From Escherichia phage MirsaeidiM_Esher2: a DNA stretch of 40,547 nucleotides. A program made the translations under genes and the position numbers. Shown in pieces: positions 2,297 to 40,547 of the stretch (position 1 is its first letter; each line of letters begins with the position of its first letter). A model generated the notes under the pieces. That model searched no databases. It saw only the letters and a list, made by a program, of their open reading frames with translations, and was not told where the DNA came from. Where the stretch lies: sequence record PQ464628.1. The stretch is one strand, 5' to 3'.

Positions 2297-2390
2297 CTGA
2301 ATGAATAACTATAGGCGAAAACTGAATTAATAAGCAGTTAGTAACCTATAGTTACTACCAGACTAACCTACTGTTTTATAAGGAGTTTGG

Positions 2391-2413
2391 ACTTAACTAT
2401 CACTATAGGGAAG
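2391..2413 (+). promoter_or_regulatory. phage-RNAP promoter, phiOR-like (ACTTAACTATCACTATAGGGAAG)
   Basis: Matches the recurring 23-bp motif found 11 times in the window; lies after gene 19 and before the gene 19.5-like ORF, as phiOR does in T7. Confidence 0.7.
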
Positions 2414-2592
2414 ACCCCCGGTTACTTATAGTATTACTGTAGTGAATATACATATGCAGACTTTATGCAAGACCTTAGGAGGCAGACTCCGAGTTCTTAC
2501 CTAAGGCTTGCACCGATGGAAGGAGGGCGATATTAATCATAATCCCTCCAATACAGATAGTAAAGACCATAGATACAGGAGGTATGTAGCAT

Positions 2593-2751
2593 ATGGCAAA
2601 GACCAAAGCTGTACTTAAAGCTCTGGCGACCAATCGAGCTACATACAGGTTTCTTGCTGCTGTTCTACTTACTGCTGGCGTTACTACTGGAAGTCAGTGG
2701 GTCGGGTGGGTCGAGACTCTCGTATGTTCTCTGGTGTCTGAGTGTCATTAA
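2593..2751 (+). CDS. 19.5: small protein, T7 gp19.5-like (52 aa)
   Basis: ATG with SD AGGAGG 10 nt upstream; hydrophobic 52-aa product with RxTYRFL motif resembling recalled T7 gp19.5; below the 60-aa cutoff of the ORF track. Confidence 0.5.
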   Translation: MAKTKAVLKALATNRATYRFLAAVLLTAGVTTGSQWVGWVETLVCSLVSECH

Positions 2752-2860
2752 CGCCGTAATGGTAACAATCAACGAAAGGAGGTAGGGATGGACGAGGAGT
2801 CTTATGGGTCGTTCTCTGACGAAGATTATCAGACGGAGTGGGAATACTCGCATTGAAGAC

Positions 2861-2901
2861 CTAAGGTCAGTTCATAGCTGACGCTACTCTACTGACCTTA
2901 G
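2861..2901. repeat. perfect 10-bp inverted repeat (CTAAGGTCAG / CTGACCTTAG) with 21-nt loop
   Basis: Arms at 2861..2870 and 2892..2901 are exact reverse complements; located in the right-end non-coding region. Confidence 0.6.
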
Positions 2902-2988
2902 CTACTGTAGTCAAGGACTTTAGGTAACACCTTAAGAGAAGCTCACTTAGGGTCATCCTACTTATTGGTCCATCCTAGTGTCGCCTGA

Positions 2989-3025
2989 CCTACGGTCCTT
3001 GACCTACAGTGGCTGTGGCCTACAG
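2989..3025. repeat. short repeats CCTAC(A/G)G x3, right-end side
   Basis: CCTACGG at 2989, CCTACAG at 3003 and 3019; same motif as the array at 3266..3367; analogous to the CCTAAAG-type repeats near T7 ends. Confidence 0.5.
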
Positions 3026-3064
3026 TAGTGACGATGAGTTTTGGACCAAAAGTTTGAGACCACA

Positions 3065-3265
3065 TCTCACAGTTCAAGAACCTCAAGTCTCCCCATAGGC
3101 CCTCTTTCAGTCCAGACCAAAGGCCCTACCCAAGTCTATCATAAGGTTAGACCGATGGTCAAGACTTCAGGTCAACGATAGGTCTAGGCTATGGCTTAGG
3201 GAAGGACGATAGGTGGTGACTATTGGTCTGTCTTTGAGTCTCTATCTGTATCAGACCTTGAGTCA
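3065..3265. repeat. candidate terminal-repeat region (collapsed single copy) with genome end near 3065
   Basis: Starts TCTCACAGT, as the T7 left end does (TCTCACAGTGTACGG, recalled); flanked on both sides by CCTACAGT repeat arrays; boundaries approximate. Confidence 0.3.
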
Positions 3266-3322
3266 CTACCTACAGTCTAACTACCTACAGTCTAACTACC
3301 TACAGTCTAACTACCTACAGTC
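3266..3322. repeat. tandem 15-bp repeat CTACCTACAGTCTAA (3 full copies + 12-nt partial)
   Basis: Read directly; two further CCTACAGT copies at 3344..3367; produces the artefactual SNYLQ-repeat ORF 3213..3410. Confidence 0.9.
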
Positions 3323-3478
3323 ATCGACCATCGGTAATGCTGCTACCTACAGTCTAAACCTACAGTTAATAGACACAATGGCTATAGACTTAAGGTCTAA
3401 GACATGTTAGTCAAAGACTATATCCTCTTACACCATGGGGCCGACGATAGCTTAATCAATATTATTTCAAATTACCTA

Positions 3479-3507
3479 TTGACTATAGGTCCAGACTATG
3501 GCCTAAT
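3479..3507 (+). promoter_or_regulatory. candidate sigma70 early promoter (A1-like)
   Basis: TTGACT at 3479..3484, 17-nt spacer, weak -10 CCTAAT at 3502..3507; resembles T7 A1 context (TTGACT...CCTATAGG) as recalled. Confidence 0.35.
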
Positions 3508-3789
3508 AGCTTCCGTCAACACGACACGGCAACAACCGGATAGTGAAGACGCCGGTGTCATCCCGGTTAAGTAGACAGCCTGATAAGTCATACGAACAAC
3601 AGGCAGATGACAATAAGGTAGTAAGGTCGCTGAGGGCTTCCACTTCAGCAGGTCGGAAAGGTCCTAAAACCTAACGAGAGTCTGACCAGCTCGCCAAGTC
3701 TGCCACTGAGGTGGATAACCAGAGGAGGCAACGTGTCGCCCACTGAGGGGCTACAGCTCACAGTTTAGGTTAACAGGCTAAACAAATGC

Positions 3790-3819
3790 TTGACAAGATG
3801 TAACGATAAGATGTAATAT
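3790..3819 (+). promoter_or_regulatory. sigma70 early promoter (A3-like): TTGACA-18-TAATAT
   Basis: -35 TTGACA 3790..3795, -10 TAATAT 3814..3819 preceded by TG; surrounding sequence resembles T7 A3 (TTGACAACATGAAGTAA...TACCACATG). Confidence 0.6.
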
Positions 3820-3942
3820 TTACCACATCGAAACAACGGTGATGACCAACACTGAAATGGTCTACCTGAAGTCCTCTGACTGAAGGGAATGCTCTTTAAC
3901 AATCTGGATAAACTCTTAATGTGCGCCGATAGCGACTAACTA

Positions 3943-3990
3943 CAGGGCCTTTGAGTCTACATCTGAAGGCCCTGACTGATAGCCACTAAC
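3943..3990 (+). promoter_or_regulatory. 9-bp-stem hairpin plus conserved box CCTGACTGATAGCCACTAAC (RNase III R0.3-like site candidate)
   Basis: Stem 3943..3951 / 3966..3974 is perfectly complementary; no T-tract follows; immediately upstream of the first early ORF. Confidence 0.5.
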
Positions 3991-3997
3991 TTAAAGG

Positions 3998-4252
3998 ATG
4001 GACACTATGAAACACTTAAGCACAATCACTAATCGCAATGAAGTATTCGTGAACACTAAAGGTTATGCGTGGATTCAGCTTAAAGAGATGAGAGGAGCGC
4101 GTCACCGTGTGGTAGTGCGCAAGGTATCAAGCAAGCAGTTCAGCAACTACAGCGTCGATACTGTGCGTATAGACAACGAGACATACCTGATAGACGCGCA
4201 GATAACCGTGAGTCCTACAGTGGGCGTCTCAGCTCCTTATTTCGCTAACTGA
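3998..4252 (+). CDS. hypothetical early protein (84 aa; basic)
   Basis: First ORF downstream of the sigma70 promoters; SD AAGGA favours the second ATG at 4007; no similarity to T7 proteins I can recall. Confidence 0.55.
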   Translation: MDTMKHLSTITNRNEVFVNTKGYAWIQLKEMRGARHRVVVRKVSSKQFSNYSVDTVRIDNETYLIDAQITVSPTVGVSAPYFAN

Positions 4253-4265
4253 GAGTGATTAACTA

Positions 4266-4307
4266 CAGGTCGTTAGAATCATAGCGGCCTGACTGATAGT
4301 CACTAAC
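4266..4307 (+). promoter_or_regulatory. hairpin plus second copy of box CCTGACTGATAGTCACTAAC
   Basis: 7-bp stem 4266..4272 / 4285..4291 (one G-U); box 4288..4307 is 19/20 identical to 3971..3990; directly upstream of the ocr-like gene. Confidence 0.45.
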
Positions 4308-4335
4308 ACATAATTAACTTTGAGAGGATATAACT

Positions 4336-4839
4336 ATGGAACGTAATGCTAACGCATACTATGAGCTGCTGGCTGCAACCGTTGAGGCATTTATCGAGCG
4401 TATTCAGTACGACCATCTGACTCAAGATGATGACTACAGCGATGCGCTGCATGAGGTCGTAGACGGTCAGGTTCCACACTATTACCACGAGATTTTTACG
4501 GTGATGGCTGCTGATGGTATAGACCACGAGTTCGAAGACTCTGGGCTGATGCCTGAAACCAAGGACGTAACGCGTATACTACAAGCTCGCATCTATGAGG
4601 CGCTTTATAACGATGTGTCTAATAGCTTGGATGTAGTCTGGTTTGAGGCTGAAGAGGCAGACGAAGAGGATGAATATTGGGTAGTTGACGCTAAAACAGG
4701 CGCAATAATTGTGCAAGCTGTAGCTCTTGAGGTCGCTACTGCATGTGCCAAGGTCAACTATGCAATAGGTCGCCACCTGAAGGTGGAAGACATCAATGAT
4801 AACGTAGTGTTCGACCCTGCGGCTGAGGACTGCGAGTGA
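4336..4839 (+). CDS. 0.3: Ocr-like DNA-mimic anti-restriction protein with C-terminal extension
   Basis: 167 aa; residues ~40-95 ([43 protein letters not shown]) match recalled T7 Ocr; acidic; about 50 aa longer than the 117-aa T7 Ocr. Confidence 0.8.
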
Positions 4840-4988
4840 TGGTAACTTATGGTCTCTGCCAGCACCACGTCGCCAACGCCCGGCTTATGGTCAAGACCGG
4901 GCGGTTAACCCATGATGAGACTATGCGTCTCCTGAAGGTGGTCTACAAGCGCCGCAAGCGTATTCACGACAGTTTGCACGCTGAGTGA
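4839..4988 (+). CDS. hypothetical small basic protein (49 aa)
   Basis: ATG overlaps the ocr stop (TGATGG); open 49 codons; below ORF-track cutoff; Cys/His-containing, basic C-terminus. Confidence 0.35.
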   Translation: MVTYGLCQHHVANARLMVKTGRLTHDETMRLLKVVYKRRKRIHDSLHAE

Positions 4989-4995
4989 TAAACGA

Positions 4996-5021
4996 GAGGT
5001 CATCGACTGATAGGTGGCCTC
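4996..5021 (+). promoter_or_regulatory. hairpin GAGGTCA / TGGCCTC with GACTGATAG in the loop
   Basis: 7-bp stem incl. one G-U pair; shares the AGGTCA/TGGCCT core with hairpins at 8711, 16060 and 40490. Confidence 0.4.
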
Positions 5022-5054
5022 AAAGATTACCACTTACATTAATAGGGGTTAACT

Positions 5055-5144
5055 ATGAGTGTGGGATATTGGGTATGCCTAGCGCCAGTTATCTGGATGA
5101 TAGGCTATGGGTTATACGACTGTATTAAACGGAAATCACTATGA
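5055..5144 (+). CDS. hypothetical 29-aa hydrophobic peptide
   Basis: ATG with SD AGGGG upstream; stop overlaps next ATG (ATGA); very short, so weak. Confidence 0.25.
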   Translation: MSVGYWVCLAPVIWMIGYGLYDCIKRKSL

Positions 5145-5338
5145 GTCTTGCACTATTGATAGCCATAGGCTATGGACTTATCGCCTACGTGCTGGTGAGA
5201 GACATCAACAAAGCGCGTAAAGTCTACAAATTCAACTATGTACGTCTGGGCCGCTGGACTGTACGTCAACCTAACGGACGATTCATGCGCAACTTAGCGA
5301 ACGTCTGGGATATAGCAACTATTGGGAGCAAACTGTAA
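5141..5338 (+). CDS. hypothetical small membrane protein (65 aa)
   Basis: N-terminal hydrophobic segment LALLIAIGYGLIAYVLV; start overlaps preceding stop, stop overlaps next start (TAATG). Confidence 0.45.
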   Translation: MSLALLIAIGYGLIAYVLVRDINKARKVYKFNYVRLGRWTVRQPNGRFMRNLANVWDIATIGSKL

Positions 5339-5598
5339 TGAAAACCGTATACATTAACAAACCATCTAGCCATAGCCGTGTAGAGCAAATAGAGCGTGAC
5401 ATGTTCTTACATCGCCGCATGAGGGCTGAGGGCCATAAGTACGAACTGATGAGTCTGGCGTTTGGTGGACGACCGATCACTGACGATGGTAAACTTTTAG
5501 TCTCAGGCTGGAAGGCGATAGACCAACGGTCAACCATCAAGCACACGACTCACGGTGACTTCAGCCATCTCCACGCTAACCAACTGATATGCAAGTGA
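5338..5598 (+). CDS. hypothetical early protein (86 aa)
   Basis: Translationally coupled to the upstream ORF; occupies the position where T7 has gene 0.7 but is far too short for a kinase. Confidence 0.5.
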   Translation: MKTVYINKPSSHSRVEQIERDMFLHRRMRAEGHKYELMSLAFGGRPITDDGKLLVSGWKAIDQRSTIKHTTHGDFSHLHANQLICK

Positions 5599-5603
5599 TT
5601 ATG

Positions 5604-5626
5604 ACTTAACTATCACTATAGGACTC
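5604..5626 (+). promoter_or_regulatory. phage-RNAP promoter-like sequence directly upstream of the RNAP gene
   Basis: ACTTAACTATCACTATAGGACTC; identical to the phiOR-like site over 20 nt (5603..5622 = 2390..2409). Confidence 0.55.
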
Positions 5627-5695: not shown

Positions 5696-8377
5696 ATGAG
5701 CATCATCTCTATTGATAAACACGACTTCTCTGATGTGTCTAACACCATTGAGCCGTTTAACCTGCTGGCTGACCACTACGGGCAAGACCTTGCAGTCAAG
5801 CAGCTTCAGCTTGAGCATGAGGCATACACTGAAGGCGAGCGACGTTTCATCAAGAACCTTGAGCGACAGACTGAGCGCGGGGAACTGGCAGACAATCAGG
5901 TCGCCAAGCCTTTGATGCAGACTCTTGTACCTAAGATTGCGCAAGCAGTCAAGGAGTGGCACGAAGGCCAAGACGGGAAGCTGTCAACCTCTCGTCCTAG
6001 CGTAGCGTTCACCATGTTGAGCACTGAAGAGAAGGCCGTCAAGGACCGCTCTATGCGCATCTCCTGTGAGTCCGCTGCGGTTATCATACTGAAGGTCATA
6101 CTCTCCAAGCTGGTCAAGCCCGAAGGGATACCGATTACACCTATGGCCTCCGCGATAGGTCGCACACTTGAGGACGAAATCCGCTTCGGTCGCATCCGTG
6201 ACAAAGAGAAAGAGCACTTCAAGAAGGCGATAGCTGATAACCTGAATAAGCGGGCCGGGGCGTCCTACAAGAAAGCCTACATGCAAGCGGTCGAGGCGTC
6301 CATGCTGGAGCAAGGCCAACTGGAAGATGCGTGGGGGACTTGGAGTCCTACAGAGGCTGTCCACGTTGGCATCAAGATGCTTGAGATTGTCATCCAGTCA
6401 ACACAACTGGTCGAGCTTAAGCGTTACGGTGCTGGCAATGCAGCGGCTGATGTCGAGATGGTCCACCTGTCAGACTTCTGGGTCAAGAAGATGGCACAAC
6501 GTGGATTCAGCCTTGCGGGTATCGCACCAGTCTATCAGCCTTGCGTCGTTCCACCTAAGCCGTGGACGGGTGTCGTAGGCGGTGGTTACTGGGCCAAAGG
6601 TCGCAGACCATTACCGCTGATTCGCTTAGGCTCTAAGTCTGCGGTAGCACGTTACGAAGACGTGTACATGCCTGAAGTCTATGAAGCTGTGAACATCATT
6701 CAGAATACACCTTGGAAAGTGAACAAGAAGGTTCTGGACGTGGTGAACATGGTCGAGAAGCTGAACAACACGCCTATTGATGACATCCCTCAGATGGAAC
6801 CGCTGAAGCCTGAGGACTATGCGGGTGAGACTGAGGAGGAACTCAAGGCATGGAAGAAAGCTGCTGCTGGTATCTATCGCCGCGAGAAGGCCAGACAGTC
6901 ACGCAGGTTGTCACTGAGCTTTATCGTTAACCAAGCGAACAAGTTCTCTCAGTTCAAGGCTATATGGTTCCCGTACAACATGGACTGGCGCGGTCGCGTC
7001 TACGCTGTGCCGATGTTCAACCCTCAGGGTAACGACATGCAGAAGGGTCTCCTGACTCTGGCAGTTGGCAAGCCTATTGGTGCTGACGGTTTCAAATGGC
7101 TAAAGGTACACGGTGCAAACTGCGCGGGTGTCGATAAAGTCACCTTCGAGGAGCGCATCAAGTGGGTGGAAGACAACCACGACAACATCATGGCTGCTGC
7201 TAAAGCACCTATGGACAGCATTGAGTGGTGGGGAAAGTTAGACTCTCCGTTCTGTTTCCTCGCGTTCTGCTTCGAGTATGCTGGCGTAATGCGCCATGGC
7301 CTGTCTTACTCCTGCTCGCTGCCGATAGCGTTCGATGGGTCCTGCTCTGGGATTCAGCACTTCAGCGCGATGCTTCGTGACCACATCGGTGGACATGCGG
7401 TAAACCTGACGCCTTCCGGTAAAGTCCAAGACATCTACCGCATCGTGTCCGACCGCATTGAGGAGGAGCTTAAAGTCCTGCTGGTTAACGGCACGGACAA
7501 CGAGATGGTAACTCACGAGGACAAGAAAACTGGTGAGATTACCGAGCGTCTCAAGCTGGGGACACGAGAGCTGGCCCGTCAGTGGCTGACCTACGGTATG
7601 TCACGCAAGGTTACTAAGCGCTCAGTCATGACTCTGGTCTACGGGTCGAAAGAGTACGGCTTCGCAGACCAAGTTTACGAGGACATCGTGATGCCCGCGA
7701 TTGACTCAGGGTCTGGCGCTATGTTCACCGAACCAAGCCAAGCGTCCCGCTTCATGGCTAAGATGATTTGGGAAGCTGTGAGCGTGACCGTAGTTGCTGC
7801 GGTAGACGCTATGAAGTGGCTTCAAGGTGCTGCCAAGCTGCTGGCTGCTGAAGTGAAAGACAAGAAGACTGGAGAAATCCTGAAGCCTTGCCTTCCGGTA
7901 CACTGGGTCACGCCTGATGGGTTCCCGGTCTGGCAGGAATACCGCAAGAAGGATACCACGCGTCTGAACCTGATGTTCTTAGGGTCATTCAACCTTCAGC
8001 CTACCGTCAACAAAGGCACGAAGAAAGAGCTGGATAAGCACAAGCAGGAGTCAGGCATTAGCCCGAACTTCGTCCACTCACAAGATGGTAGCCACCTCCG
8101 CAAGACTGTAGTCCATACTCACCGCAAGTATGGCGTGATGTCGTTCGCAGTGATTCACGATAGCTTCGGGACCATCCCGGCTGACGCTGAGTATCTGTTC
8201 CGTGGGGTCCGTGAGACTATGGTAGAGACCTACCGCGACAACGATGTGCTGCTTGACTTCTACGAGCAGTTTGAATACCAGCTTCACGAGAGCCAGCGCG
8301 ATAAGTTGCCAGAGCTTCCGAAGAAAGGTAAACTGAATATCGAAGACATCTTGTCTTCAGACTTTGCATTCGCCTAA
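5696..8377 (+). CDS. 1: single-subunit DNA-directed RNA polymerase (T7 gp1 homolog)
   Basis: 893 aa; colinear with recalled T7 RNAP (PFNLLADHYG, GRIRD, QPCVVPPKPWTG, DGSCSGIQHFSAM, HDSFGTIPADA, ending SDFAFA). Confidence 0.97.
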   Translation: MSIISIDKHDFSDVSNTIEPFNLLADHYGQDLAVKQLQLEHEAYTEGERRFIKNLERQTERGELADNQVAKPLMQTLVPKIAQAVKEWHEGQDGKLSTSRPSVAFTMLSTEEKAVKDRSMRISCESAAVIILKVILSKLVKPEGIPITPMASAIGRTLEDEIRFGRIRDKEKEHFKKAIADNLNKRAGASYKKAYMQAVEASMLEQGQLEDAWGTWSPTEAVHVGIKMLEIVIQSTQLVELKRYGAGNAAADVEMVHLSDFWVKKMAQRGFSLAGIAPVYQPCVVPPKPWTGVVGGGYWAKGRRPLPLIRLGSKSAVARYEDVYMPEVYEAVNIIQNTPWKVNKKVLDVVNMVEKLNNTPIDDIPQMEPLKPEDYAGETEEELKAWKKAAAGIYRREKARQSRRLSLSFIVNQANKFSQFKAIWFPYNMDWRGRVYAVPMFNPQGNDMQKGLLTLAVGKPIGADGFKWLKVHGANCAGVDKVTFEERIKWVEDNHDNIMAAAKAPMDSIEWWGKLDSPFCFLAFCFEYAGVMRHGLSYSCSLPIAFDGSCSGIQHFSAMLRDHIGGHAVNLTPSGKVQDIYRIVSDRIEEELKVLLVNGTDNEMVTHEDKKTGEITERLKLGTRELARQWLTYGMSRKVTKRSVMTLVYGSKEYGFADQVYEDIVMPAIDSGSGAMFTEPSQASRFMAKMIWEAVSVTVVAAVDAMKWLQGAAKLLAAEVKDKKTGEILKPCLPVHWVTPDGFPVWQEYRKKDTTRLNLMFLGSFNLQPTVNKGTKKELDKHKQESGISPNFVHSQDGSHLRKTVVHTHRKYGVMSFAVIHDSFGTIPADAEYLFRGVRETMVETYRDNDVLLDFYEQFEYQLHESQRDKLPELPKKGKLNIEDILSSDFAFA

Positions 8378-11233: not shown

Positions 11234-11388
11234 CTGACGTAGAGAAGAAATACATCGTTGAGCTTGAGGGTCGCGTTCAGTCCTTCGAGGTTCCGGTGTA
11301 CGCAAAGTCTCTTGAAGAGGCTACCCTGAAGTCCCAAGAGTATGAGGACGCTGGGTTTGTGGTAGGACGGATTCGTCCTGAGACCTAA
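11230..11388 (+). CDS. 2: gp2-like inhibitor of host RNA polymerase (52 aa)
   Basis: [14 protein letters not shown]...GF.V.RIRP resembles recalled T7 gp2; stop TAA lies inside the next promoter. Confidence 0.7.
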
Positions 11389-11406
11389 ACTATCACTGTA
11401 GGACAG
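11384..11406 (+). promoter_or_regulatory. phage-RNAP promoter (CCTAAACTATCACTGTAGGACAG)
   Basis: Consensus with G at -3; upstream of SSB gene. Confidence 0.65.
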
Positions 11407-36717: not shown

Positions 36718-39700
36718 ATGTCCACGATTACACAATTCCCTTCAGGAAACACTCAGTACAGGATTGAGTTCGACTACCTAGCCAGAACGTTTGTTGTTGT
36801 TACGCTGGTGAATAGCTCTAACCCTACCCTGAACCGTGTACTGGAAGTTGGTCGAGATTACCGATTCCTTAATCCAACGATGATTGAGATGTTGGTTGAC
36901 CAATCAGGTTTCGACATCGTTCGTATTCACCGTCAGACTGGAACTGACTTAGTGGTAGACTTCAGGAATGGCTCAGTGTTGACAGCTAGTGACCTGACAA
37001 ATTCAGAGCTTCAGGCTATCCATATTGCAGAAGAAGGTCGAGACCAAACGGTTGACTTAGCGAAGGAATATGCCGATGCTGCTGGTAGCTCTGCTGGCAA
37101 CGCTAAGGATAGCGAGGACGAAGCACGCCGAATCGCTGAGAGTATCAGGGCAGCTGGTCTAATTGGCTATATGACCCGTCGCTCCTTCGAGAAAGGCTAC
37201 AACGTTACAACATGGAGCGAGGTCCTTCTATGGGAAGAGGATGGTGATTATTACCGCTGGGATGGTACGCTTCCAAAGAACGTTCCTGCTGGTTCAACTC
37301 CTGAAACTTCCGGTGGGATTGGATTAGGTGCGTGGGTTAGTGTTGGTGATGCTGCTTTAAGAAGTCAGATTTCAAACCCGGAAGGGGCAATACTCTACCC
37401 TGAATTACATAGAGCACGCTGGCTTGATGAAAAAGATGTTCGTGGTTGGGGTGCTAAAGGGGATGGTGTCACTGATGATACAGCAGCGTTAACGAGCGCA
37501 TTAAACGACACACCGGTTGGACAAAAGATTAATGGCAATGGGGGAACATATAAGGTCACATCCCTGCCTGACATTAGTAGATTCGTCAATACTCGTTTTG
37601 TATATGAACGTATTCCAGGTCAGCCGCTTTATTATGTCTCTGAAGAATTTGTTCAAGGTGAACTGTTTAAAATAACGGACACCCCTTATTACAATGCGTG
37701 GCCACAGGATAAAGCGTTCGTTTACGATGATGTTATTTACTGCCCGTTCATGGCTGGTGATAGACATGGGGTCAGTCGTCTGCATGTATCATGGGTTAAG
37801 TCTGGTGATGACGGTCAAACATGGTCTACTCCAGAGTGGTTAACTGATCTGCATCCAGATTACCCTACAGTGAACTATCATTGTATGAGTATGGGTGTAT
37901 GTCGCAACCGTCTGTTTGCCATGATTGAAACACGTACTTTAGCCAATAACGCATTAACCAATTGTGCATTGTGGGATCGCCCCATGTCTCGTAGCCTGCA
38001 TCTTACTGGTGGTATCACTAAAGCTGCAAATCAGCGATATGCAACAATACATGTACCAGACCACGGACTATTCGTGGGTGATTTTGTTAACTTCTCTAAT
38101 TCTGCGGTAACAGGTGTATCCGGTGATATGAATGTTGCAACCGTAATAGATAAGGACAACTTCACGGTTCTTACACCCAACCAGCAGACTTCAGATTTGA
38201 ATAACGCTGGAAAGAATTGGCACATGGGTACTTCTTTCCATAAGTCTCCATGGCGTAAGACAGACCTTGGGCTAATCCCTCGTGTCACAGAGGTGCATAG
38301 CTTTGCTACTATTGATAACAATGGCTTTGTTATGGGTTATCATCAAGGCGATGTAGCCCCACGCGAAGTTGGGCTTTTCTACTTCCCTGATGCTTTCAAT
38401 AGCCCATCTAGTTATGTTCGTCGTCAGATACCATCTGAGTATGAACCAGATGCGTCAGAGCCATGCATCAAGTACTATGACGGTGTATTATACCTTATCA
38501 CTCGTGGCACTCGTGGGGATAGACTAGGTAGCTCTTTGCATCGTAGTAGAGACATAGGTCAGACTTGGGAGTCACTGAGATTTCCACATAATGTTCATCA
38601 TACTACATTACCTTTTGCTAAAGTAGGGGATGACCTTATTATGTTTGGTTCAGAACGTGCAGAAAATGAATGGGAAGCAGGTGCACCCGATGATCGTTAC
38701 AAGGCATCTTATCCTCGCACCTTCTATGCACGCTTGAATGTAAACAATTGGAATGCAGATGATATTGAATGGGTTAACATCACTGACCAGATTTATCAGG
38801 GCGGAATAGTTAACTCAGGTGTAGGTGTTGGTTCGGTAGTTGTGAAGGATAATTACATCTACTACATGTTTGGTGGAGAGGACCATTTTAACCCATGGAC
38901 ATATGGAGATAACTCAGCGAAGGATCCCTTCAAATCAGATGGTCATCCCTCAGATTTGTATTGCTACAAAATGAAGATTGGCCCAAGCAATCATGTTTCC
39001 CGTGATTTCAGGTATGGTGCTGTACCTAACAGAGCTGTTCCCGTGTTTTTTGATACGAATGGGATTCGCACTGTTCCTGCGCCAATGGAATTTACAGGGG
39101 ATTTGGGTTTAGGGCATGTGACCATTAGAGCCAGCACCAGTAGTAACATTCGCTCTGAAGTTTTAATGGAAGGTGAATATGGGTTTATCGGGAAATCTAT
39201 ACCGACTGATAACCCGGCAGGGCAGCGCACCATATTTTGCGGGGGTGAAGGCACCAGTTCAACGACTGGCGCACAGATTACGCTTTATGGTGCAAATAAC
39301 ACCGACTCAAGGCGAATAGTTTACAATGGTGCTGAGCATCTGTTCCAGAACGCTGACGTTAAGCCTTATCTCGATAACGTGATTGCGCTTGGTGGACCAA
39401 GTAACCGTTTCACAACTGCATATCTCGGAAGCAACCCTATTGTTACTTCTAATGGGGAGAAGAAAACAGAGCCGGTAGTTTTTGATGATGCTTTCCTAGA
39501 TGCCTGGGGTGACGTTCACTACATCATGTATCAATGGTTAGATGCTGTTCAACTGAAAGGCAATGATGCTCGTATTCACTTCGGGGTTATTGCTCAGCAA
39601 ATTCGTGATGTATTCATTGCACACGGTCTGATGGATGAAAACAGTACGAATTGTCGTTATGCCGTTCTGTGCTATGACAAGTATCCACGGTTGACCGATA

Positions 39701-39912
39701 CGGTATTTTCGCACAATGAAATCATTGAACACACTGACGAGGAGGGTAATGTCACTACTACGGAAGAGCCTGTATTCACTGAGGTGGTTATCCATGAAGA
39801 GGGTGAGGAGTGGGGTGTTCGGCCTGACGGAATTTTCTTTGCTGAAGCCGCTTATCAGAGAAGAAAACTGGAAAGAATCGAAGCCAGACTTTCTGCTCTT
39901 GAACAGAAGTAA
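36718..39912 (+). CDS. 17: tailspike: gp17-type N-terminal adaptor + endosialidase catalytic domain + C-terminal intramolecular chaperone domain
   Basis: 1064 aa; N-terminus EFDYLARTFVVVTL like T7 gp17; Asp-boxes SGDDGQTW (37801..37824) and SRDIGQTW (38545..38568); overall matches recalled K1F endosialidase; AT-richer than flanking genes. Confidence 0.93.
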   Translation: MSTITQFPSGNTQYRIEFDYLARTFVVVTLVNSSNPTLNRVLEVGRDYRFLNPTMIEMLVDQSGFDIVRIHRQTGTDLVVDFRNGSVLTASDLTNSELQAIHIAEEGRDQTVDLAKEYADAAGSSAGNAKDSEDEARRIAESIRAAGLIGYMTRRSFEKGYNVTTWSEVLLWEEDGDYYRWDGTLPKNVPAGSTPETSGGIGLGAWVSVGDAALRSQISNPEGAILYPELHRARWLDEKDVRGWGAKGDGVTDDTAALTSALNDTPVGQKINGNGGTYKVTSLPDISRFVNTRFVYERIPGQPLYYVSEEFVQGELFKITDTPYYNAWPQDKAFVYDDVIYCPFMAGDRHGVSRLHVSWVKSGDDGQTWSTPEWLTDLHPDYPTVNYHCMSMGVCRNRLFAMIETRTLANNALTNCALWDRPMSRSLHLTGGITKAANQRYATIHVPDHGLFVGDFVNFSNSAVTGVSGDMNVATVIDKDNFTVLTPNQQTSDLNNAGKNWHMGTSFHKSPWRKTDLGLIPRVTEVHSFATIDNNGFVMGYHQGDVAPREVGLFYFPDAFNSPSSYVRRQIPSEYEPDASEPCIKYYDGVLYLITRGTRGDRLGSSLHRSRDIGQTWESLRFPHNVHHTTLPFAKVGDDLIMFGSERAENEWEAGAPDDRYKASYPRTFYARLNVNNWNADDIEWVNITDQIYQGGIVNSGVGVGSVVVKDNYIYYMFGGEDHFNPWTYGDNSAKDPFKSDGHPSDLYCYKMKIGPSNHVSRDFRYGAVPNRAVPVFFDTNGIRTVPAPMEFTGDLGLGHVTIRASTSSNIRSEVLMEGEYGFIGKSIPTDNPAGQRTIFCGGEGTSSTTGAQITLYGANNTDSRRIVYNGAEHLFQNADVKPYLDNVIALGGPSNRFTTAYLGSNPIVTSNGEKKTEPVVFDDAFLDAWGDVHYIMYQWLDAVQLKGNDARIHFGVIAQQIRDVFIAHGLMDENSTNCRYAVLCYDKYPRLTDTVFSHNEIIEHTDEEGNVTTTEEPVFTEVVIHEEGEEWGVRPDGIFFAEAAYQRRKLERIEARLSALEQK

Positions 39913-40022: not shown

Positions 40023-40217
40023 ATGATTGAGTTAGACTTCAAGAATGAGGTCCTTAAAGCCTCTCCTATCGTCGGGACCGCTGCGGCTGATGGTGCCAGT
40101 CGGTTCTTCTTCGGACTTACACTGAACGAATGGTTCTACGTTGCAGCTATAGCGTACACCGTTGTCCAGATTGGTGTGCTAGTCTACAAAACGATTAAAG
40201 GAGGTGGTAAAACATGA
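40023..40217 (+). CDS. 17.5: class II holin (T7 gp17.5 homolog)
   Basis: 64 aa; APIVGTAAADGASRFFFGLTLNEWFYVAAIAYTVVQIG matches recalled T7 holin; SD GGAGG. Confidence 0.85.
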   Translation: MIELDFKNEVLKASPIVGTAAADGASRFFFGLTLNEWFYVAAIAYTVVQIGVLVYKTIKGGGKT

Positions 40218-40477
40218 CGCAGATGGACTTAGAGAAGTTCCTCTTAATTCTGGATACTGAACGTGCTCGACTCATGCTGCAAGACCTGCGGGATGACACT
40301 AAGCGTTCACCTCAGCTTTACAACGCCATCGAGAAGCTACTGGCTCGTCACAACTTTGTGCTAAGCAAGGTGTCAGTTGACGAGAAGACGCTCGCTGATA
40401 TGGAGGCCCTGAACGCAGAGTATGATAAGGTGCTTTCAGCGACTGAGGATAATGACACAGGGTATGGTGTTCAATAA
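40214..40477 (+). CDS. 18: terminase small subunit / DNA maturation protein (T7 gp18 homolog)
   Basis: 87 aa; RSPQLYNAIEKLLARH matches recalled T7 gp18; ATG overlaps holin stop; SD AGGAGG. Confidence 0.85.
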   Translation: MTQMDLEKFLLILDTERARLMLQDLRDDTKRSPQLYNAIEKLLARHNFVLSKVSVDEKTLADMEALNAEYDKVLSATEDNDTGYGVQ

Positions 40478-40528
40478 GTGTTAGACTCAAGGTCATTACT
40501 ATATGTAGTGGCCTTTATGGTTAACACT
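40477..40528 (+). promoter_or_regulatory. RNase III-type hairpin candidate upstream of Rz (R18.5-like)
   Basis: Lower stem AGTGTTA 40477..40483 / TAACACT 40522..40528; upper stem AGGTCA 40490..40495 / TGGCCT 40509..40514; 13-nt loop. Confidence 0.5.
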
Positions 40529-40547
40529 AACTAGTGGAGGAGACTCT
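40493..40547. repeat. 55-nt duplicate of window positions 1..55 (circular assembly overlap)
   Basis: Exact identity read directly. Confidence 0.95.

Follow-up and report, generated by a model that had tools for sequence, protein, structure and literature searches.

Introduction

At which bases does the virion DNA of Escherichia phage MirsaeidiM_Esher2 begin and end, and what are the short direct repeats that crowd around one locus of its sequence? By the window we mean the whole stretch analysed here, the 40,547 nucleotides of record PQ464628.1 read on one strand, 5' to 3'. An earlier reading of the letters without database searches (the sequence-only reading) had taken a segment beginning at 3065 for a candidate terminal repeat flanked by heptamer arrays and, by analogy with T7, had placed the genome ends and the concatemer-processing region there. 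That proposal is supported by the record ends of related phages, by the mapped ends of phages SH3 and SH4 and by the gene order. We conclude, with a probability of roughly 0.93, that a Kayfunavirus (a K1F-like podophage of the T7 group) has its concatemer junction here. The junction was captured inside the contig because assembly fused the two repeat copies into one and closed the genome into a circle.

Results

The window is a circularised assembly of a K1F-like phage

Judged by its sequence, the window represents a Kayfunavirus genome (K1F-like, T7 group) whose assembly collapsed into a circle. A 25-kb query shared ~94–95% identity over ~90% of its length with Pipis, vB_EcoP_F, SR04 and other Kayfunavirus phages, and this high nucleotide similarity is joined by synteny with K1F-like phages. 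A 291-bp query across the junction matched 229 phage records, nearly all of them T7-group phages of enterobacteria; Kayfunavirus records dominate the junction matches, and many of the 229 are named Kayfunavirus. At the junction itself, window positions 2541–3242 are 96% identical to the right end of K1F, and from 3065 onward the window matches the left ends of K1F, Peacock and Vec13 at 90–95% identity.

Positions 1–55 duplicate 40493–40547 exactly (55 nt, 100% identity, spacing 40,492; repeat family D7), indicating that the contig is a circularised assembly of a 40,492-bp unit and that its ends are not a physical genome end. The duplicate has the small terminase gene on one side and the Rz-like gene on the other, amid the late genes, and looks like an assembler circularisation overlap, being of typical assembler k-mer length. 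We considered this 55-bp end repeat as a candidate terminus and rejected it as an assembler overlap. The genes around the circularised joint and the junction are as follows.

36718–39912, tail spike
40023–40217, holin
40214–40477, + strand, small terminase subunit, gp18 homologue (PHROG 1351, E = 6.7e-34)
87–536, Rz-like spanin
533–2296, + strand, large terminase subunit, gp19 homologue (PHROG 38, E = 1.8e-131)
2593–2751, gp19.5-like small protein
4336–4839, ocr-like gene
5696–8377, single-subunit RNA polymerase

As in T7, late genes (gp19 and gp19.5) lie to the left of the junction and the early region (the ocr-like gene and RNA polymerase) to its right, an order that marks the end-to-start junction of a T7-group genome. 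The large terminase encoded at 533–2296 is the enzyme expected to make the junction cuts. Between the gp19.5-like ORF and the ocr-like gene there is ~1.2 kb without a convincing gene. Mechanically called + strand ORFs at 3041–3181, 3213–3410 and 3404–3574 overlap the terminal repeat and the arrays, and many related GenBank records annotate "hypothetical proteins" over DNA homologous to the junction; ORF calls across 3041–3410 and up to 3574 are probably spurious, lying within a cis-acting region. Farther to the right, a ~167-bp non-coding segment of the early region (3622–3790) is present in the window, Vec13 and 216Ecol046PP and missing from K1F, Peacock and EPr2, whose alignments jump from 3622 to 3790. 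This segment ends at the best sigma-70-like promoter, TTGACA-18-TAATAT, at 3790–3819.

Homologous record ends delimit a 179-bp terminal repeat

The terminal repeat is present only once in the contig because assembly collapsed its two copies; the K1F, T7 and T3 records each carry both.

3065–3243, + strand, direct terminal repeat of 179 bp (left terminus 3065; right end 3243, uncertain over 3242–3248)

The nine nucleotides that the sequence-only reading had recognised as the start of T7 are indeed shared: window 3065–3073 reads TCTCACAGT, and T7 (NC_001604) begins TCTCACAGTGTACGG. T3 begins TCTCATAGT, so that all three conform to TCTCAYAGT. Comparison with the terminal repeats of related phages, which that reading had named as a check, places both ends. 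The base aligned to 3065 is base 1 in six records (K1F, Peacock, Vec13, SH3, LS2 and PR_Kaz2018), and other records end, in window coordinates, at 3242 (K1F and KM02), 3243 (SH4) and 3244 (CR44b). The proposed repeat of 3065–3265 thus keeps its start and loses ~22 bp at its right end, which homology sets at 3243.

The annotated repeats of relatives agree closely on this right boundary, with a spread among records of ~5 bp. The repeat is annotated as 1–179 in Peacock ("predicted by PhageTerm") and in Vec13 and is 179 bp long in EPr2, and all three end ...GAGTCTCT. The K1F record carries a 178-bp repeat at both ends, one base short of window 3243, and the K1F repeat is given as 179 bp where PMC4925675 cites Scholl and Merril 2005. 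The repeat end of CR44b lies one base past window 3243 and that of SH3 five bases past. The repeats of SH3 and SH4 are annotated as 184 and 191 bp in their records and reported as 183 and 190 bp in the study that mapped these ends with run-off Sanger reads from phage DNA (PMC4925675). GA2A, with a 165-bp repeat, is clearly shorter than the others, while the remaining records deviate by −1 to +5 bases; the annotated right-end lengths of relatives accordingly disagree by only a few bases (178, 179, 183 and 184), with 165 in one record. Because most of these repeats end at ...GAGTCTCT, that is, at window 3243, we place the repeat of this phage, its termini inferred solely from homologues, at 3065–3243. 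The sequence-only reading had held that the repeat length cannot be read from a collapsed assembly; the collapse is real, yet homology delimits 179 bp with a right end uncertain by ~5 bp.

We compared twelve Kayfunavirus junctions: those of the window, K1F, TH20, PDP351P4, R1, PhiNW-B1, SR04, Monomax, ZH4, PDP21P1, EcL30g and GW1. Every one of the twelve contains a single TCTCAYAGT, with ATCTGT 179–205 bp downstream and abutting the repeat end, and the same TCTCAYAGT/ATCTGT arrangement is found in T7, with its 160-bp repeat, and in T3, with its 231-bp repeat.

Two side observations concern the repeat. Its right half (3175–3230) holds degenerate heptamer-like elements in reverse orientation, including GATAGGT twice (ACCTATC on the other strand), and similar opposite-strand elements, CCCAAAG/CTCAAGG-like, occur in the T7 repeat. 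Separately, the terminal region matches three or four places each in the records of EPr2 (OM256482.1, positions 1–679) and 216Ecol046PP (PP328844.1, positions 1–901), where the 179-bp repeat is followed by 321 bp that belong at another place near the ends and then by the repeat again at 501–679. These duplicated starts look like deposition or pipeline artefacts and not biology.

Near-invariant blocks abut both repeat boundaries

The twelve-junction column profile is near-invariant across the left cut site (3035–3094) and again at 3235–3254, which comprises the right end of the repeat and ATCTGTAT. Two blocks lie immediately to the left of the repeat.

2855–3032 (210 bp if run to 3064), + strand, conserved non-coding block left of the junction, identity 0.78–1.00
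3033–3064, + strand, near-invariant block directly adjoining the left cut site (CGATGAGTTTTGGACCAAAAGTTTGAGACCACA), column identity 0.97–1.00 across 12 junctions

The block at 3033–3064 contains a 13-bp palindrome, TTTTGG-A-CCAAAA (3040–3052), and is recognisably similar to the corresponding T7 sequence, ...ACCATAAAAATCTGAGTGACTA|TCTCACAG, making it a candidate recognition sequence for end cleavage. The invariant blocks at 3033–3094 and 3235–3250 are more likely than the heptamer arrays to be the cleavage signals. Farther left, identity of 0.78–1.00 over 2855–3064 compares with 0.23–0.66 in the stretch just upstream (2765–2854). Conservation so much higher than that of the adjoining DNA suggests a cis-acting element, and the block at 2855–3032 is a candidate packaging region of the pacB type.

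This block also contains a hairpin at 2861–2901, formed by a perfect 11-bp inverted repeat (RNA fold −20.5 kcal/mol, z = −3.2), and the non-coding block around it is ~95–100% conserved across the 12 Kayfunavirus genomes. With no U-tract, the hairpin does not qualify as a classical terminator; an RNase III site or a component of a packaging signal would be possible roles. A scan of 2300–4400 for intrinsic terminators found none, and an Rfam scan of the same interval at E ≤ 1 gave zero matches.

At the right boundary, an imperfect 26-nt inverted repeat (3205–3230/3252–3277) brackets the repeat end and ATCTGT (DNA fold −13.9 kcal/mol, z = −3.1). K1F, TH20, Monomax and ZH4 have it too, and a change in Monomax (TTTTGAC/GTCAAAA) is apparently compensatory. 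A hairpin or cruciform at the right cut site was rejected as a general feature of these junctions, being missing in PDP351P4, R1, EcL30g, GW1 and T7.

A predicted promoter reads into the junction toward a conserved ATCTGTA

Two elements suggest how transcription may meet the junction.

2392–2411, + strand, predicted phage RNA polymerase promoter, counterpart of T7 phiOR (CTTAACTATCACTATAGGGA), one mismatch to the 11-copy consensus
3244–3250, + strand, ATCTGTA adjoining the repeat, at the position occupied in T7 and T3 by the class II pause signal ATCTGTT

The promoter-like 20-mer, with consensus CTAAACTATCACTATAGGGA, occurs in 11 + strand copies in the window against 0.01 expected by chance. 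The copy predicted at 2392–2411, between genes 19 and 19.5, lies upstream of the junction and reads into it. Just to the right of the repeat, over 3244–5604, no phage promoter was found within 3 mismatches of the consensus; the first promoter past the junction is at 5605–5624, just upstream of the RNA polymerase gene. In this respect the window differs from T7 and T3, whose phiOL promoters lie at about 405 and at 366–388, respectively, whereas the window is without a counterpart beside the right array (≤3 mismatches).

ATCTGT stands immediately 3' of the repeat in all twelve Kayfunavirus junctions, in T7 and in T3. In bioRxiv 10.64898/2026.02.12.705533, which cites He et al. 1998, the class II signal is described as a heptanucleotide, ATCTGTT, that is strictly conserved and must follow A, C or T. 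The window's T-ATCTGTA (3243–3250) matches six of these seven bases, and the seventh is A, not T, throughout the twelve Kayfunavirus junctions, which makes ATCTGTA a positional analogue of the T7 motif and not a strict member of its class. YATCTGTW is not enriched genome-wide (7 found against 5.5 expected); positional conservation is the only evidence for this candidate pause motif. Given a position equivalent to that in T7 and T3, ATCTGTA may act as a pause signal with a K1F-type polymerase.

Same-strand heptamer arrays flank the repeat

Of the flanking CCTAC(A/G)G(T) copies, put at nine or more in the sequence-only reading, nine were recovered, all on the + strand, three to the left of the repeat (2989, 3003 and 3019) and six to the right (3269, 3284, 3299, 3314, 3346 and 3359), each CCTACRG being followed by T. 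They fall into three groups.

2989–3026, + strand, left array of three (A/G)CCTAC(A/G)GT copies at 2989, 3003 and 3019
3265–3322, + strand, tandem array of unit ACTACCTACAGTCTA containing four CCTACAGT heptamers (Tandem Repeats Finder: period 15, 3.9 copies, 100% matches)
3346–3366, + strand, two distal heptamers (CCTACAGTCTAAACCTACAGT) closing the right array, column identity 1.00 and 0.87

The 15-bp tandem array had been given as 3266–3322; it is perfect, at 3.9 copies, and Tandem Repeats Finder starts it one base earlier, at 3265. The clustering far exceeds chance: the + strand density elsewhere in the window predicts ~0.14 copies per 377 bp (Poisson P(≥9) = 5e-14), and counting the tandem array as a single event still leaves P(≥6) = 1e-8. 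In 300 Markov simulations the largest heptamer cluster was 3. The whole window contains 33 CCTACRG matches, compared with 9.6 ± 3.1 in dinucleotide-preserving shuffles.

Heptamers were present on both flanks in all relatives examined, in one orientation and at 13–16-bp spacing. The three left copies are nearly fixed, their offsets of −76, −62 and −46 recurring in K1F and most Kayfunavirus junctions, and their T7 counterpart is the set of CCTAAAG repeats to the left of its right-end terminal repeat. On the right, CCATA(A/G)G is mixed with CCTACAG in K1F, PDP351P4 and Monomax, and in the other relatives 15- or 16-bp units are repeated in short tandem arrays. Of the unit ACTACCTACAGTCTA, 216Ecol046PP has 3.9 copies, Vec13 2.9 and TH20 ~2, Peacock shows no exact tandem, and GA2A has 4.6 copies of a 16-bp unit. 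At equivalent positions T7 has CCTAAAG arrays, and T3 has CCTAAAG together with CCTGTAG. Taken together, this survey defines a conserved architectural feature with fast turnover of sequence and copy number: heptamers closest to the candidate pause site are replaced quickly and homogenised, whereas the outermost stay fixed. The turnover probably proceeds via slippage or unequal exchange.

Heptamer type varies between groups (CCTAAAG in T7 and T3, CCTACAG or CCATAAG in Kayfunavirus) while the strand is constant. One promoter variant in the window, CTAAACTATCACTGTAGGAC at 11385–11404, has a complement that contains the junction heptamer CCTACAGT, which prompted the idea that the heptamer is a partial reverse promoter (CCTACAGT is one base off the complement of the core ACTATAGG). 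We rejected this idea because heptamer type and promoter core do not covary: the T3 core, CACTAAAGG, differs, yet T3 uses CCTAAAG as T7 does, and K1F-type phages share the T7 core CACTATAGG and use CCTACAG.

Discussion

A model for end formation

The analysis establishes the identity of the region, its left boundary, its right boundary to within ~5 bp, the pattern of conservation and the gene context; pausing, the order of the cuts and any role of the arrays are modelled on T7 and T3. According to this model, the virion DNA would be linear, starting at 3065 (TCTCACAGT...), running round the contig and ending at ~3243, with 3065–3243 present at both ends. As in T7 and T3, replication would yield head-to-tail concatemers whose junctions each contain a single repeat copy. 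RNA polymerase initiating at the phiOR-like promoter (2392) would transcribe into the junction and pause at ATCTGTA (3244), just past the repeat. Terminase (gp18, 40214–40477; gp19, 533–2296) and the prohead would then engage at the paused junction. Cuts would fall at both repeat boundaries, and the repeat would be duplicated by synthesis, so that each genome leaves with two copies.

The model draws on the published picture of T7-like phages, in which each concatemer junction has a single repeat copy, maturation includes synthesis of the other (PMC10438801), and PacB is recognised by gp18 and PacC cleaved by gp19 (PMC9860248). Counterparts of this T7/T3 machinery are all found in the window: the phiOR-like promoter, the repeat, T-ATCTGTA and both terminase genes.

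What the arrays may do

To our knowledge, no role has ever been assigned to the heptamer arrays, even in T7, and our search of the literature found no experiment assigning them a function. We favour the view, by analogy with T7 and T3, that the CCTACAGT arrays correspond to the CCTAAAG arrays bracketing the repeat in those phages and are accessory cis elements, protein-binding or structural, and not cleavage signals.

The strongest competitor, reasonable but less likely than not in our estimation, is that the arrays have no sequence-specific function and are satellites prone to slippage or recombination that the non-coding DNA beside the repeat tolerates, processing requiring only the boundary blocks, the promoter and the pause site. 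The proximal right array (3255–3294) is the least conserved stretch in the twelve Kayfunavirus junctions (0.29–0.53), as neutral DNA would be. Among close relatives the 15-bp unit ranges from one copy, with no exact tandem, in Peacock to 3.9 copies, heptamer type shifts between CCTACAG and CCATAAG, and the perfect tandem copies indicate recent expansion. Some constraint is indicated, however, by arrays kept on both flanks of every junction examined, across three genera, with orientation and the 13–16-bp spacing preserved. The conservation of the three left and two distal right copies at 0.78–1.00 points the same way, as does the persistence of a CC(T/A)A(N)AG heptamer family since the divergence of T7 and K1F.

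If the arrays are accessory cis elements, as we favour, the heptamers might be binding sites for a co-evolving phage-encoded packaging or processing protein, with array dosage tuning concatemer cutting and repeat duplication. We regard this specific proposal as speculative and more doubtful than the satellite reading. Were it true, the natural variants, with one to four 15-bp copies in near-identical phages, would form an allelic series for tests of function.

A far less probable reading takes the arrays as replication-origin iterons or as sites for an early-transcription regulator, their position at the genome end being incidental. The right array does lie upstream of an early promoter region with the sigma-70-like site at 3790–3819, and iterons typically are short direct repeats spaced at roughly helical intervals. 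We consider this reading very unlikely because the copies, flanking the repeat, end up at opposite ends of the packaged linear genome and because T7 and T3 have their repeat bracketed in the same way. In addition, no initiator-like gene adjoins the arrays, and the primary origin of T7 lies elsewhere, downstream of gene 1.

Finally, short-read assembly is known to collapse terminal repeats (PMC10438801) and the two contig ends are identical over 55 bp, but an artefact in which those ends are the true termini and the tandem array is a mis-assembly at the collapsed repeat is effectively excluded, because the junction with its 3.9-copy array recurs at 99% identity in the independent record PP328844.1 and because the 55-bp overlap, whose length points to an assembler k-mer, falls between the small terminase and Rz-like genes; the same architecture is moreover seen in at least 12 independent assemblies.

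Significance

The feature itself is already known: genome-end architecture of this kind has been described for T7, T3 and K1F, and near-identical sequences with annotated repeats are in GenBank. Biologically, the window adds one further instance of a well-known architecture. The practical consequence is that the contig should be opened at 3065 and a second 179-bp copy appended after base 3064, which brings the virion genome to ~40,671 bp. Copy-number variation among close relatives could help address the role of the flanking heptamer arrays.

Comparison with known systems

T3 (NC_003298) starts TCTCATAGTTCAAGAACC; of its first 18 bases, 17 agree with the window repeat. Its repeat ends ...GTGTCCCT, is followed by ATCTGTT and is flanked by CCTAAAG and CCTGTAG heptamers. 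It differs in the greater length of its repeat (231 bp) and in a heptamer set that is not the window's.

With T7 the window shares the first nine bases and, inside the repeat, a heptamer at offset 16 and CCATAGG at offset 28. Also common to both are ATCTGT right after the repeat, same-strand arrays on both flanks at ~13–16-bp spacing, a phage promoter between genes 19 and 19.5, and the gene order. In contrast, the T7 repeat is 160 bp long against 179 in the window, its heptamer is CCTAAAG and not CCTACAG, base seven of the pause motif is T and not A, and the repeat interior can barely be aligned with the window.

K1F (NC_007456) stands much closer. It shares the first bases, TCTCACAGTTCAAGAACCTCAAGT, and the distance of 179 bp from TCTCACAGT to ATCTGT. 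A few substitutions apart, the 130 bp on the left side match exactly, the three left heptamers among them, and the same two distal heptamers close the right array. The differences are that the right array of K1F mixes CCATAAG and CCTACAG with no exact tandem, whereas the window has a homogenised four-copy 15-bp array, and that K1F is without the ~167-bp early segment (3622–3790) that the window carries.

The nearest junctions are those of Peacock (MK903279), Vec13 (MH400309) and 216Ecol046PP (PP328844), which are 95–99% identical to that of the window and all carry ACTACCTACAGTCTA. They differ from it only in the copy number of the 15-bp unit: none in tandem in Peacock, 2.9 in Vec13 and 3.9 in 216Ecol046PP, against 3.9 in the window.
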